Shown: piece by piece, positions 7,171 through 18,865 of the stretch | Layout of the letters: the number at the start of each line of letters is the position of its first letter | Position numbering within the stretch: the first letter of the stretch is position 1 | Sequence record: ON212266.1 | Origin: Enterobacter phage fGh-Ecl02 | Length of the DNA stretch: 64,000 nt | Direction: 5' to 3' (one strand) | Program-made: the position numbers and the translations under genes | Notes under the pieces: generated by a model | The model's input: only the letters and a program-made list of their open reading frames with translations | Databases searched by the model: none | What the model was told of the DNA's origin: nothing

Positions 7171-8406
7171 TCAGCGTTTCAAGAGTGTCATGAGGTTGAC
7201 GCTGCTGGACTTCGGCTTGTCCTCAACCTTGCGCACAGGCATCTTCAGGTTCGTACAGACCTCGGATGGTTCCCAGCGCGTACCCTTTTGCAGGTGCCAG
7301 ATATGCAGAGGAACACCAGTCTCAAAGAACACAGGCATCTTCCACTTCTGGACGCCTGGAACGTGCCCTACAGGAGCCTTTTCGCACAACAGGGTATCTG
7401 GCAGCCAGAGCGAACGGGCTTCCCAGAGCGCTGCGCAGGAGTATTCAGGCCAGACGCGTTCCATGTAGTCTATCTCATCCCAGGTACGCTCTGCGTCCCA
7501 CCCGATGTAACGGGTATTCTTCAGTCGGAAGAATTTCTTCAGCCAACAAGCACCGGAGGTTTCAAAGTTCAGGCGGTTGATGAACGTCAGGTGCCCGAAC
7601 TCAGCCACACAATCCTGGAACGCCTGCTCAAGGTCGGCCTCAAGGATGTCACACTCTTCATCCGTGATAGGGCAACCGTTGATCTTTTTCTTCCCGTGTT
7701 TAGTCACCCAATCGTCACGGTTGGACAAGAACGCCGCGCCATTACGGTTGGACTCGCTTCCATCACGATCACGCAGCATGAATCCAGGGACGTCAATGGT
7801 GTATTCGTTCCCGAAGACCATGTTCAGGGCTTCCAGGAAGTTCCAGGCACTCAGGCGACCGAAGTATTTCCAGGACATCGCCGTGTCCCACAGCTGGGTG
7901 AATTGTTCTGTCTTATCGATGCACACCAACATCCCACGGAAAGCGTCATATTGAGTACGGCCAGCCAGCCAGTCAATATAGGACTGAACACACGGAATCA
8001 TCTTGGACTTGCGGTAGCGACAGTCGGTATCGAATCGCATGCGTTCAAAGTTCAGATTATACCAATCAGAGAAGCGCTGCATCTCTTCCTTAGACTGAGG
8101 CGGCACAGGGAACTCACTGTAGATCGTCCACGGTCCGACAGCGTTATAGCAACAACCCCACAGGAATGCCATCCAGATCTTGCGCTCGACTTTCTGTTCG
8201 AGGCTGATACCTTCAGTGACTTCGATCGCATAGTCCATCAGACGCATCTGCTGGTTGTGCTCTTCTGTGTAGGACAGCGCCTCCACCCAAGCCTTGAGCA
8301 GGTACATGCGATTCTCAGGCTTGCGATAATCAACAGCCAGGTCAATCGGGTACTTCCATTCAGCCGGAGGCGTATAGCCCGTCGGCATTTTAGATAAATG
8401 ATGCAT
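7171..8406 (-). CDS. hypothetical protein 411 aa; candidate DNA-modification enzyme
   Basis: Large soluble ORF with no recognisable motif. It is co-located with the kinase, PLP and HAD genes. Confidence 0.5.
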   Translation of the reverse strand: MHHLSKMPTGYTPPAEWKYPIDLAVDYRKPENRMYLLKAWVEALSYTEEHNQQMRLMDYAIEVTEGISLEQKVERKIWMAFLWGCCYNAVGPWTIYSEFPVPPQSKEEMQRFSDWYNLNFERMRFDTDCRYRKSKMIPCVQSYIDWLAGRTQYDAFRGMLVCIDKTEQFTQLWDTAMSWKYFGRLSAWNFLEALNMVFGNEYTIDVPGFMLRDRDGSESNRNGAAFLSNRDDWVTKHGKKKINGCPITDEECDILEADLEQAFQDCVAEFGHLTFINRLNFETSGACWLKKFFRLKNTRYIGWDAERTWDEIDYMERVWPEYSCAALWEARSLWLPDTLLCEKAPVGHVPGVQKWKMPVFFETGVPLHIWHLQKGTRWEPSEVCTNLKMPVRKVEDKPKSSSVNLMTLLKR

Positions 8407-8765
8407 CTTTCGCTTCCTCTTCAGGAGCCACAGCTTCAGGCTCAGGAGCCAGCTGAATATCTTCCGGCTTCACGAACCCCATCGGACGTTCCCACATATC
8501 GACAAAGCGACGGTCAGCGGTCACGAACCACAGACGGGCTGCGGTGTGGGTCTTACTCGAGATGAACATCTGAGCGTTCGTCTGGGTACGGAACGGAGCA
8601 GCCTGCAACCACTTGCCAAAGTCTTTGGACGACGGATTGGCATTCAGCTGGAACTGAGGGATGACGCAGTTCTTTTCAGGAATCAGGCGCACGGCAGTAA
8701 TGTGCTTGGCGTTTCCGGTGTAGTCAATCGCAACAGCCACAGCATCGCGAGGGATTTGAATTTTC
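8390..8765 (-). CDS. hypothetical protein about 125 aa (start at MKIQIP)
   Basis: ATGA overlap with the upstream 67-aa ORF. Confidence 0.4.
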
Positions 8766-8967
8766 ATTTTGGTTCCTTGAATATTTTGTAACCAGCAGCG
8801 CCGATAGACATCACCGCGCCAATACAGTACATCACAGTCACGTTCAACTTCTCTGAGGTTGTTAAGTCCAGAGGGGTGAAATGATAGGCTAGGGCAGTAC
8901 ACATTGAAACGGCTGCCATAACCAGACCAATGAACAACAGATAATTAGACAACCGTTTCATGATCAC
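8764..8967 (-). CDS. small two-TM membrane protein 67 aa
   Basis: Hydrophobic segments 'LLFIGLVMAAVSMCTALAY' and 'VMYCIGAVMSIGAAGY'. Confidence 0.4.
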   Translation of the reverse strand: MIMKRLSNYLLFIGLVMAAVSMCTALAYHFTPLDLTTSEKLNVTVMYCIGAVMSIGAAGYKIFKEPK

Positions 8968-17150: not shown

Positions 17151-17610
17151 CTTCCCGCACTGCCAGGCCTGGTTTGTACAGGACGATCTCACGCACCATA
17201 GGCAACCCAAAGCGGTCCAGCACGATGGTGGAGTCATAGCCCTGAGCAATTAGCTCGGCAGCGTTCTCATGGATCTTACCCGGTTCGATACCAAGTTCAC
17301 GCATAGCGTCTTCCCAGGCCGAGACATTGTTAGAGTCGAGTTCGAGAGGCTTCTTAACACTGACGTTAAACACCAGAACATGGGGTTCACCACTCTGGCG
17401 GTAGCGGACGGCATTCTCTGCATAGCGCTGTGCCTCTTCTTCGTTGCCTGTCAGATAGAACCCAGGTCCCATCGTACCACAGTCAGTCTGACCGAAGCGC
17501 TCAAAGTCGAAGACATCGAATTCTACGTTGGAGCCGTGAAAGAGGCGCATGTTATCGAACTTGGGTTCAGCCTCAGACGCCTCTTTAAGATATTCAAGAA
17601 AGGTTTTCAT
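17146..17610 (-). CDS. hypothetical protein 154 aa with H-G-S...GFY...E motifs; possible H-Y-E class ADP-ribosyltransferase fold
   Basis: 'LFHGSNVEF', 'GPGFYLTG', 'GEPHVLVFNV'. Confidence 0.45.
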   Translation of the reverse strand: MKTFLEYLKEASEAEPKFDNMRLFHGSNVEFDVFDFERFGQTDCGTMGPGFYLTGNEEEAQRYAENAVRYRQSGEPHVLVFNVSVKKPLELDSNNVSAWEDAMRELGIEPGKIHENAAELIAQGYDSTIVLDRFGLPMVREIVLYKPGLAVREA

Positions 17611-17650
17611 AAATACCCCACACTGGTTTGTATGGGGTATTTAGGAGGGA
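17611..17650 (-). promoter_or_regulatory. late-promoter motif CTAAATAcccc embedded in a hairpin (minus strand)
   Basis: Minus strand reads cctaaataccccatacaaaccagtgtggggtattt then ATG. The inverted repeat is ataccccA / Tggggtat. Confidence 0.5.
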
Positions 17651-18865
17651 TCAGGAAGGGGTGAATTCGTTTACAGGAACTGTTTCAGGGATAGCCAGCT
17701 CAGGGCATGCTGCCTTCATCGGCTCGATGTATGGCTTGCTACCCACAATCCAGAACAGAGTGTTCTCATTGAGCAACTCGGGCTTGTGTTGCTGAACCCA
17801 GGTCATGACCTTGCCTTCATAGCGAGGATGCAACTCAATATCACCCCACTGATATTCCATCAGGTCATTATAACGAACCCAATTAGTGGTATGAAGATCC
17901 CAATGGTGTACCTCAAAGCGAGGAAGCACGACCTCTGGCTCTTCCTTCTGCCTGATACCACTTAGGAGGCCAGCCAGCGAAACGCTCTTAGAGGCATGCT
18001 GAAGTTCCTTCTTGCCGTGTACATAGTCTGGGTTGTCGTGATAGCGACGGGTGAAGTCGACAATGTGCGGCAGATTGGCATGTTTGCCGATGATACGCAG
18101 ACGGCTCTCAATGAAGTCAAGGCGGTTAGGACCGATGCCGATCAGATACACACGCTTCAGATTAGGCTTCGGATGCATTGCCAGCCCGGTCAGAATGCTT
18201 GTGCAAGAGTTGCACGATCCGGCTGGGATAATCAGATCGGTAATATGGTCAGGGATGTTGGCAACCTGCTCGCCACCCAGCATATGGAAGCCAGCGATGC
18301 GCTCAGGGGAGTGGGCTGTATGGTCGAGGGTGATACCATACTCCAGATAATACGCCTTTGGATTCTGTTGTTCGATCAACTTCTTACAGCGCGGCTGGAT
18401 CGTGCTGTTGTAACCCGAGCCGACGAAGTTGAACTCACTACCAAACCAGGCTGACATTGCCACCATGTCGTGGTTCATACAGGTGGTGGGTTTGGTCGCT
18501 CCGAGTACAGTGGTTGTCTTGCCGCCGAAGTGCCGAGAGACTGCTGTCGCCATAGGGGACTGTGGACTACCAACGACAGTGCCGTGGATGATGTCAGGGG
18601 AGCCTCCGGCCTTGAGGTGCTCAACCATCAACCAGATGGCCTGACGGAGTTTGCTGCCGTTGATACCCTGTTGGCCATTCGCGTAATTGGACAACGGTGC
18701 GAAGTAATCTTCACGCTTGAACCAGACCTGCTGATTGGTTTCGGGGTTGACGACAAGTTCGCACGGGGTGTGCTTGAAGAGATAATCTTCCCAATGGACC
18801 AGGTTGCGGTCGAGGGAAAGGATATCGAAGATGGTCTTGTTCATTCTATTTTCTCCTGTAGACAT
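17651..18865 (-). CDS. PLP-dependent fold-type-II enzyme (ACC-deaminase/Trp-synthase-beta family-like) 404 aa
   Basis: 'FKREDYFAPLSNYANGQQGINGSKLRQAIW...GGSPDIIHGTVVGSPQSPMA' matches the KRED...GNKxRK...GxxQSN pattern. Confidence 0.6.
   Translation of the reverse strand: MSTGENRMNKTIFDILSLDRNLVHWEDYLFKHTPCELVVNPETNQQVWFKREDYFAPLSNYANGQQGINGSKLRQAIWLMVEHLKAGGSPDIIHGTVVGSPQSPMATAVSRHFGGKTTTVLGATKPTTCMNHDMVAMSAWFGSEFNFVGSGYNSTIQPRCKKLIEQQNPKAYYLEYGITLDHTAHSPERIAGFHMLGGEQVANIPDHITDLIIPAGSCNSCTSILTGLAMHPKPNLKRVYLIGIGPNRLDFIESRLRIIGKHANLPHIVDFTRRYHDNPDYVHGKKELQHASKSVSLAGLLSGIRQKEEPEVVLPRFEVHHWDLHTTNWVRYNDLMEYQWGDIELHPRYEGKVMTWVQQHKPELLNENTLFWIVGSKPYIEPMKAACPELAIPETVPVNEFTPS

Follow-up and report, generated by a model that had tools for sequence, protein, structure and literature searches.

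Salmonella phage ViI and its relatives carry a hypermodified thymidine whose biosynthesis has been worked out biochemically. Lee et al. (2018, PNAS) reported that 5-(2-aminoethoxy)methyl-2′-deoxyuridine (5-NeOmdU, 301 Da) replaces about 40% of the thymidine in ViI, CBA6, CBA120 and Vibrio phage 1.255.O, that lysates with ViI gp67, gp160, gp226, gp243 and gp247 reproduce 5-NeOmdU on DNA containing 5-hydroxymethyl-2′-deoxyuridine (5-hmdU), and listed LIMEstone and AG3 in the same phage group as ViI (PMC5889632). The individual reactions were described by Lee et al. (2021, NAR): 5-hmdU in DNA is phosphorylated by gp67 and also by gp243, purified gp247 attaches free L-serine through its hydroxyl to 5-phosphomethyl-2′-deoxyuridine (5-PmdU) to give O-serinyl-thymidine (O-SerT), and purified gp226, a protein containing pyridoxal phosphate (PLP) with K92 as its predicted Schiff-base lysine, decarboxylates O-SerT to 5-NeOmdU (PMC8989533). 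When gp226 is omitted, a carboxylated 345-u intermediate accumulates, which purified gp226 converts to the 301-u product (PMC8989533). According to a 2024 review the modification genes are conserved throughout Ackermannviridae, and their annotation after the ViI genes is already found in ordinary genome papers.

Here we analysed a 64,000-nucleotide stretch of Enterobacter phage fGh-Ecl02 (record ON212266.1; the window, below, is this whole stretch), in which an earlier note had seen a candidate thymidine-hypermodification toolkit of four genes. At its core that reading was right, and the profile searches that the note had proposed bear it out. The label of a mere candidate does not hold, since the pathway has been solved for ViI since 2018-2021. 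The locus is already known: the published ViI pathway, biochemically reconstituted in 2018 and 2021 and routinely annotated, accounts for the proposed toolkit, and no new explanation is needed. Our reading, to which we give a probability of about 0.9, is that the locus represents the post-replicative half of the Ackermannviridae 5-NeOmdU pathway and that its predicted kinase is the cargo of a homing cassette. The endonuclease fusion and the mobility of the kinase are the sole point that goes a little beyond the literature searched. DNA that carries the hypermodification resists many restriction enzymes and probably also other defences that target DNA, which is of relevance to phage therapy and biocontrol with Ackermannviridae and to the cutting or sequencing of their DNA.

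Layout of the locus and proposed reactions

All four open reading frames (ORFs) of the earlier note are present on the minus strand with exact coordinates: the transferase ORF (7171..8406, 411 residues), an endonuclease-kinase fusion ORF (8964..10562, 532 residues), the ORF of a HAD protein (10877..11653, 258 residues) and that of the PLP enzyme (17651..18865, 404 residues). They span 11.7 kb, and the GC content of 0.48-0.51 across the region is unremarkable. A megablast search with the region matched 283 phage records, the best of which, at 96-97% identity, are Salmonella phage vB_CECAV_050 (Agtrevirus) and Escherichia phages ZQ1, YX22 and AV101; Dickeya phages of the genus Limestonevirus follow at about 90%. 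Furthermore, an ORF-by-ORF tblastn comparison showed that the whole window is collinear, in reverse orientation, with ViI at about 96-157 kb. These comparisons indicate that the window is that of an Agtrevirus-like, ViI-like Ackermannviridae phage, and so bear out the architecture that had been recognised before.

The genes follow the order PLP enzyme, then, further along, DNA polymerase, HAD protein, DUF7254 protein, kinase, two small ORFs and transferase. This order is shared by ViI, Ag3, Limestonevirus, Taipeivirus and Kuttervirus, and a more compact version is found in a distant ViI-like Vibrio phage. Because the order recurs in ViI, Ag3 and these genera, the co-location of the four genes is not due to chance. 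In the ViI record, gp226 (YP_004327553), gp243 (YP_004327565) and gp247 (YP_004327568) are likewise placed around the DNA polymerase. ViI, a Kuttervirus, shares both gene order and orientation with the window, with identities of 90% for the transferase, 92% for the decarboxylase, 75% for the HAD protein, 74% for the DUF7254 protein and 86% for the polymerase, and the catalytic glutamate, cysteine and lysine are kept. The kinase departs from this pattern, being only 47% identical to that of ViI and fused in frame to a 235-residue GIY-YIG endonuclease, whereas ViI has no endonuclease at the kinase site.

In the scheme that we propose, replication would first build DNA with 5-hmdU in place of thymidine. 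This upstream work would fall to a thyA-like deoxyuridine monophosphate hydroxymethylase, a deoxynucleoside monophosphate kinase, a nucleoside triphosphate (NTP) pyrophosphatase, a second kinase of the gp67 type and a gp160 paralog, all of them presumably encoded outside the window. With ATP, the HMUD2 kinase domain (8964..9857) would then convert selected 5-hmdU residues of duplex DNA to 5-PmdU by phosphorylating their 5-hydroxymethyl group. Cys287 of the transferase, assisted by Glu282, would attack C6 of the base, so that the phosphate leaves and an exocyclic methylene forms at C5, to which the side-chain hydroxyl of free L-serine would add to produce O-SerT. Finally, the PLP enzyme, with its PLP in an internal aldimine on Lys72, would join PLP to the alpha-amine of the serine as a Schiff base and remove CO2, leaving the aminoethoxy group. 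We infer these three steps because the transferase, PLP enzyme and kinase are 90%, 92% and 47% identical to their ViI orthologs and conserve the catalytic residues.

Transferase, PLP enzyme and kinase

The 411-residue ORF had been suggested to be the transferase, and this part of the proposal stands: it matches Pfam PF18724 (ADDT) with 203.7 bits (cut-off 26.2, E = 4.5e-60) and is 90% identical to ViI gp247 across all 411 residues. The family that had been named for it, PF18746 (aGPT-Pplase clade 3), reaches 14.3 bits (cut-off 25, E = 0.028), and we rejected membership on this sub-threshold score; the protein belongs to the sister family PF18724. An alignment that combined gp247 orthologs with gp160 paralogs, drawn from the window, ViI and a Vibrio phage, showed E282 and C287 (motif ETSGAC) to be invariant. 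In ViI gp247 the conserved cysteine and the neighbouring glutamate are essential, and mutating either abolishes activity (PMC8989533). The two residues of the window protein also correspond to E243 and C247 of PaMx11 gp46, whose crystal structure (2024) places both at the active site.

PaMx11 gp46 (PUGT) and M6 gp51 belong to the same enzyme family as the window transferase and share its covalent Cys/Glu catalysis on 5-PmdU in DNA, but they install glycine through the alpha-amine (an N-C bond) where the ViI-type transferase installs serine through the hydroxyl (an O-C bond), and they are too remote from the window protein to be detected by phmmer. Collectively, the evidence argues that the 411-residue ORF is a serine:DNA transferase (aGPT-Pplase clade 2), the predicted ortholog of ViI gp247. 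Its serine specificity and O-linkage are probable on the basis of the 90% identity to gp247 and of the occurrence of 5-NeOmdU in phages whose transferase is 54% identical.

The 404-residue PLP protein is 92% identical to ViI gp226, which is annotated with 20 more residues at the N-terminus. A KRED...GNK pattern had been read in this protein; KRED is found at residues 50-53, and the lysine motif is NGSK (residues 69-72, NGSKLRQ), not GNK. K72 aligns with K92 of ViI and is invariant in 40 homologs, down to 41% identity. In a weak profile match obtained with a three-sequence profile (E = 0.23, non-significant), it also aligns with the lysine of the GGNK motif, the form seen in 1-aminocyclopropane-1-carboxylate (ACC) deaminase.

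Sequence searches of the PDB with the transferase, the kinase domain, the endonuclease domain and the PLP enzyme returned no match, and an NCBIfam scan of all four proteins and both fusion halves gave none either. Because the PDB sequence searches were uninformative, we used structure prediction for the PLP enzyme. The AlphaFold2 model, built on a 40-sequence alignment, has a predicted local distance difference test score of 91.1 and a predicted template modelling (TM) score of 0.89. The best 50 Foldseek matches to it in the PDB are all fold-type-II enzymes, as had been proposed, the first being 1j0a (E = 1.8e-10, TM 0.55/0.67). The order of matches runs from the ACC deaminase homologue 1j0a through D-cysteine desulfhydrase and ACC deaminase to serine dehydratase, tryptophan synthase beta and O-acetylserine sulfhydrylase. 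By its predicted structure, the protein is a member of the tryptophan-synthase-beta superfamily, fold type II.

The best structural matches, ACC deaminase and D-cysteine desulfhydrase (PDB 1j0a, 4d8t, 1rqx), share a KR(E/D)D...G(N/S)K lysine motif with the phage enzyme at about 15% sequence identity. They carry out ring-opening or beta-elimination on free amino acids, whereas the gp226-type enzyme removes CO2 from an amino acid that is attached to DNA, and the phage enzyme has an extra C-terminal region relative to them. We assign it as a putative O-SerT decarboxylase, the ortholog of ViI gp226, with K72 as the predicted Schiff-base lysine.

The earlier note had instead proposed that the PLP enzyme performs beta-replacement on serine, joining the beta-carbon of an aminoacrylate to the hydroxymethyl oxygen of 5-hmdU, with the kinase and transferase as accessories. 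The fold is indeed that of beta-replacement and beta-elimination enzymes (TrpB, O-acetylserine sulfhydrylase, D-cysteine desulfhydrase), and the reaction would yield the same O-SerT intermediate. The ViI experiments contradict it: purified gp247, free L-serine and kinase-treated DNA give O-SerT without any PLP enzyme, the intermediate that accumulates in lysate mixes lacking gp226 is the carboxylated 345-u one, and purified gp226 turns O-SerT into the 301-u product with the loss of one labelled carbon (PMC8989533). Beta-replacement is thus already refuted for ViI, whose gp226 and gp247 are 92% and 90% identical to the window proteins, and we consider it extremely improbable here. The decarboxylase assignment is the one that we retain.

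The kinase module (residues 236-532; 8964..9857, minus strand) is a predicted 5-hmdU DNA kinase of the HMUD2/ViI gp243 type, in a divergent 'type-B' allele. When compared with the 5-hmdU kinase model, it matched Pfam PF18747 (HMUD2) with 519.2 bits (cut-off 25, 3.8e-156), residues 236-531 covering positions 2-298 of the 298 in the profile, in agreement with the kinase proposed for this ORF. A Walker A motif, GTSGTGKGT at residues 243-251 of the 532-residue ORF, aligns with the P-loop of ViI gp243. The module is 47% identical to ViI gp243 and 49% identical to Ag3 gp200, and its ratio of nonsynonymous to synonymous substitution rates (dN/dS) of about 0.04 indicates purifying selection, stronger than that on the endonuclease half.

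Such a divergent kinase, or substitutions in the transferase, could give the phage a thymidine modification different from that of ViI, be it another amino acid, another modified fraction or another sequence context. The kinases set which 5-hmdU residues become activated, no unfused kinase is more than 47-51% identical to the type-B kinase, and related transferases in other phages install glycine or putrescine (PMC8989533). Against this, Vibrio phage 1.255.O still has the 301-Da 5-NeOmdU with a transferase only 53.6% identical to that of the window (CBA6, at 89.5%, carries the same nucleoside; PMC5889632), and the window transferase and decarboxylase are 90-92% identical to those of ViI. We regard a different modification as quite unlikely; a modified fraction or sequence context different from that of ViI is possible, and the two kinase alleles could affect which thymidines become modified.

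Several points weigh against assigning the locus to the 5-NeOmdU pathway. A gp67-type kinase, a thyA-like hydroxymethylase and gp160 were searched for in the window and are absent. The corresponding ViI genes are found at 37-39 kb and 87-89 kb, beyond the portion of ViI that the window covers, and the closest relative, vB_CECAV_050 (97% nucleotide identity), encodes gp67 (88%), the thyA-like enzyme (77%), dnk (89%), the NTP pyrophosphatase (61%) and gp160 (83%). Because the window is without the hydroxymethylase, the second kinase and gp160, the completeness of the pathway rests on this 97%-identical relative. Vibrio phage K361, ViI-like but distant, has the full set within about 17 kb, including the polymerase, dnk and the NTPase (identities: PLP enzyme 52%, HAD protein 29%, kinase 2 39%, gp247 homolog 49%, gp160 homolog 45%, gp67 homolog 41%, thyA 40%).

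Furthermore, the literature searched contained no analysis of virion DNA from Aglimvirinae, and it assigns no role and gives no experimental support to the HAD protein. The activity of the kinase on 5-hmdU DNA is predicted from family membership, at only 47% identity to the assayed gp243. The PLP protein reaches 30.0 bits with Pfam PF00291 (PALP; E = 4.3e-7), below the cut-off of 35; many of its homologs in the protein database carry a precomputed match to this family.

The product of the fusion ORF is a further point of this kind. A possible internal ribosome-binding site, AAAGAGGA (9902..9895, minus strand), can be read in the sequence, and 10 nucleotides downstream of it stands a possible in-frame start, the ATG of M227 (9884..9882, minus strand), which could give a stand-alone kinase of about 306 residues. 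Six fused copies, among them the KpS110 copy, which is the most divergent (74-79% identical), conserve AAAGAGGA as well as both ATGs. The 532-residue product, the internally initiated kinase or both may be made.

The endonuclease-kinase cassette

The ORF at 8964..10562 had been described as a P-loop kinase, which fits residues 236 to 532; the fusion partner in residues 1-235 (9858..10562, minus strand) had gone unrecognised and resembles a SegB-like GIY-YIG homing endonuclease. This module matches phrog_314 (homing endonuclease) at 9.4e-23, phrog_15209 spans the entire fusion, and tblastn against T4 segB gives 9e-12 with 34% identity over residues 4-131. Its alignment with free-standing Seg proteins extends over the full length and shows Y8, Y19, G21, E71 and N87 to be invariant; these residues are conserved in six fused copies, and the C-terminal end of a Rhizobium phage Seg protein coincides in the alignment with the start of the kinase. 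On the isolated N-terminal domain, the Pfam GIY-YIG models stay below threshold (PF01541 at 9.5 bits, cut-off 22.6; PF19835 SegE_GIY-YIG at 16.3, cut-off 25), and the assignment therefore rests on PHROGs, tblastn and alignment.

With a dN/dS of 0.13-0.16, the endonuclease half is under purifying selection. We rejected a decaying endonuclease remnant on the basis of this ratio and of the conserved catalytic residues, and residues 1-235 appear to form a complete SegB-like GIY-YIG homing endonuclease that would be active as a nuclease. T4 SegB and other Seg-type endonucleases have a similar whole-module length (about 230 residues) and are associated with co-conversion of flanking genes; unlike these free-standing proteins, the window endonuclease has no stop codon and reads straight into the neighbouring gene that it would mobilise.

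The cassette (9090..10559), which comprises the endonuclease together with the 5′ part, about 85%, of the kinase gene, shares no homology with its counterpart in ViI and Ag3. Homology at the nucleotide level, 91% to Ag3 and 77% to ViI, ends at 10560/10558, at the start codon of the 532-residue ORF (10562), and resumes at 9089, about 40 codons before its stop. The cassette of about 1.47 kb is common to Limestonevirus RC-2014 and Yersinia phage CAU_YEP3, at about 90% identity. We found the fused ORF in 28 phage records, always as one uninterrupted frame, from Agtrevirus, Limestonevirus, Kuttervirus and Taipeivirus and a Yersinia phage: they include Agtrevirus-like phages, 17 Dickeya Limestonevirus records, Kuttervirus UTK0004, Taipeivirus KpS110, the Yersinia phage and Salmonella phage PMBT18, which is unclassified in the NCBI taxonomy. 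The distribution is patchy: within the same genera some phages have the cassette and others do not, and close relatives have it unfused or lack it. Unfused ViI-type kinases, only 47-49% identical, are carried by ViI, by Ag3 and by Coodle, a Dickeya phage of the same species as LIMEstone1. In a collection of 5.8 billion proteins the divergent kinase allele occurred only fused, with one 495-residue match at 80% identity and no other above 51%.

In UTK0004 the flanks are 99-100% identical to ViI, while the cassette is 87-96% identical to that of the window and about 55-60% to ViI; as judged from these identities, the switch is a clean horizontal-transfer or co-conversion tract. How far the two halves of the cassette diverge relative to each other depends on whether YEP3 or RC-2014 is the comparison, which suggests that further recombination has occurred within the cassette. 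The mobility signature of the cassette is well supported, and the comparisons clearly point to its horizontal transfer among Ackermannviridae genera.

Shigella phage Ag3, the type species of Agtrevirus and a member of the subfamily to which the phage of the window belongs, has flanks that are 91-96% identical in nucleotide sequence and likewise carries a Seg-type endonuclease between the DUF7254 gene and the kinase (gp199 and gp200). In Ag3, however, the endonuclease is a separate ORF of 228 residues, SegD-like and unrelated by BLASTP to that of the window, and the kinase is of the ViI type, with 85% identity to the kinase of ViI and 49% to that of the window. It looks as if endonucleases have invaded this site twice, independently of each other. 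Dickeya phage LIMEstone1 has the same fused ORF in the same position (ORF186, 'F-LimXI'; 94% identical over residues 3-532), which Adriaenssens et al. (2012) described only as a free-standing SegB-like GIY-YIG endonuclease, leaving the kinase half unrecognised. No paper linking GIY-YIG endonucleases with these kinases was found in the literature searched.

We next consider whether the kinase half is dispensable or inactive, the ORF being a selfish endonuclease that runs into a decaying kinase gene while a gp67-type kinase encoded elsewhere performs the phosphorylation. The annotation of F-LimXI simply as an endonuclease would suit this view, as would the redundancy of the two ViI kinases, which both act on 5-hmdU DNA in vitro (PMC8989533), and the unusual divergence of the kinase domain from ViI (47%, as against 74-92% for its neighbours). 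Decay is, however, hard to reconcile with a domain that covers the whole HMUD2 profile at 519 bits, keeps its Walker A motif intact and is under stronger purifying selection (dN/dS of about 0.04) than the endonuclease half, in a fused frame that is open in 28 of 28 copies, and we regard this explanation as unlikely.

Taking the kinase as a functional cargo, we tentatively propose a selfish cassette that carries a DNA-modification gene. The nuclease would cut the unfused kinase locus of relatives that infect the same cell, and repair would copy the endonuclease together with a linked, cleavage-resistant kinase allele; the product is possibly one bifunctional polypeptide, perhaps accompanied by an internally initiated kinase. 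This mechanism is possible, at clearly less than even odds. If it is true, part of the thymidine-hypermodification machinery is horizontally mobile among Ackermannviridae genera. The evolutionary interest lies in a DNA-modification kinase as the cargo of a homing endonuclease, with two deeply diverged alleles within single genera.

Other endonuclease genes occur in the window. A free-standing Seg-like GIY-YIG endonuclease of 232 residues is encoded at 51601..52299, between the tail sheath and tail tube genes; it matches phrog_314 like the N-terminal module of the fusion, yet is only 22% identical to that module. Directly after the major capsid gene lies a 508-residue ORF (58232..59758) without a ViI counterpart, which has cysteine-rich motifs at its N-terminus and matches the homing-endonuclease family phrog_3339 at 2e-127.

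HAD protein and neighbouring features

The HAD protein had been included in the toolkit as a DxDxT phosphatase. The motif is present as DVDLT at residues 23-27, together with LIDDNP at 187-192 (D189, D190), and the protein matches Pfam PF06941 (NT5C) with 34.2 bits (cut-off 24.8), over profile positions 56-142 of 180 only. A weak PDB match to the putative deoxyribonucleotidase 3bwv (E = 0.0011) aligns D23-V-D25-L-T27 with DMDEV and LIDDNP with LIDDNP. The protein is 75% identical to ViI orf239, and its homologs are nearly confined to Ackermannviridae and ViI-like Vibrio phages, where they always lie near the polymerase and the kinase. We assign it as a HAD-superfamily protein resembling NT5C-type 5′(3′)-deoxyribonucleotidases, the probable ortholog of ViI orf00239.

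Phages of the hmU type deplete thymidine nucleotides with a dTTPase and a dTMPase (PMC8989533). The HAD protein would most likely act before replication, in control of the dTMP/dNMP pool, as a deoxynucleotidase that helps to deplete dTMP. Its place in the toolkit is less firm than its motif: it falls outside the set of genes with demonstrated necessity or sufficiency, being absent from the five ViI genes that sufficed for reconstitution (PMC5889632), and conserved synteny is the sole ground for including it.

The protein could also be unrelated to thymidine modification, as a general deoxynucleotidase for salvage or host-DNA recycling, or as a phosphatase of non-nucleotide substrates that happens to lie beside the polymerase. 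Besides the reconstitution without it and the lack of an assigned role in the literature, the partial extent of the NT5C match would fit such a protein, as would the weak partial homologs in a few phages other than Ackermannviridae (Escherichia phage AV124, Aeromonas phage 4L372D). On the other side stand the finding that it strictly accompanies and adjoins the polymerase and kinase, both throughout Ackermannviridae and in the distant ViI-like Vibrio phages, and the need of hmU-type phages for dTMPase activity (PMC8989533), for which we saw no other candidate. An unrelated function is a substantial possibility that approaches, without reaching, an even chance.

Between the HAD and kinase genes lies the gene of a DUF7254 protein (10562..10867, minus strand; Pfam DUF7254 at 8.2e-53; 74% identical to ViI orf240). 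The stop codon of this gene shares one base with the start of the endonuclease-kinase ORF; in ViI, orf240 abuts the kinase gene likewise. The protein is conserved in enterobacterial Ackermannviridae and was not detected in Vibrio phage K361. One record labels it a thioredoxin, a label that nothing in our analysis supports.

The gene of the family-B DNA polymerase (12054..15053, minus strand; 86% identical to that of ViI) opens a tightly packed minus-strand array that takes in the HAD, kinase and transferase genes. Between 15053 (polymerase) and 7171 (transferase), neighbouring genes on this strand either overlap or leave gaps of no more than 53 nucleotides, and the array ends at a strong hairpin resembling an intrinsic terminator, with a 16-bp stem (6906..6941, minus strand). 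The PLP gene is part of a separate minus-strand unit, from 19574 to about 16650, flanked by terminator-like hairpins. The late promoter motif of the T4 type, TATAAATA, shows no enrichment, with 2 matches where about 1 was expected. The polymerase gene is uninterrupted here (999 residues); in Limestonevirus RC-2014 it is in three pieces, with two endonuclease-carrying insertions.

Adjoining the PLP gene is an ORF (17146..17610) with ART-PolyVal and DUF3990 (ADP-ribosyltransferase-like) Pfam matches, which ViI (64%) and the Yersinia phage have and vB_CECAV_050, in other respects the closest relative, lacks. Four tRNA genes lie on the minus strand immediately upstream of the PLP unit (19913..20886: Ser-GCT, Tyr-GTA, Asn-GTT, Met-CAT); at the site of this cluster, the closest relative additionally has a tRNA-Trp. 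Finally, three long plus-strand ORFs (27758..30784, 33030..35708 and 35766..38399) share only their N-terminal parts with the tail-fibre and tail-spike genes of ViI, and GC drops to about 0.415 at 34-38 kb of the window; the ORFs at 27758..38399 are consistent with swapped receptor-binding modules.

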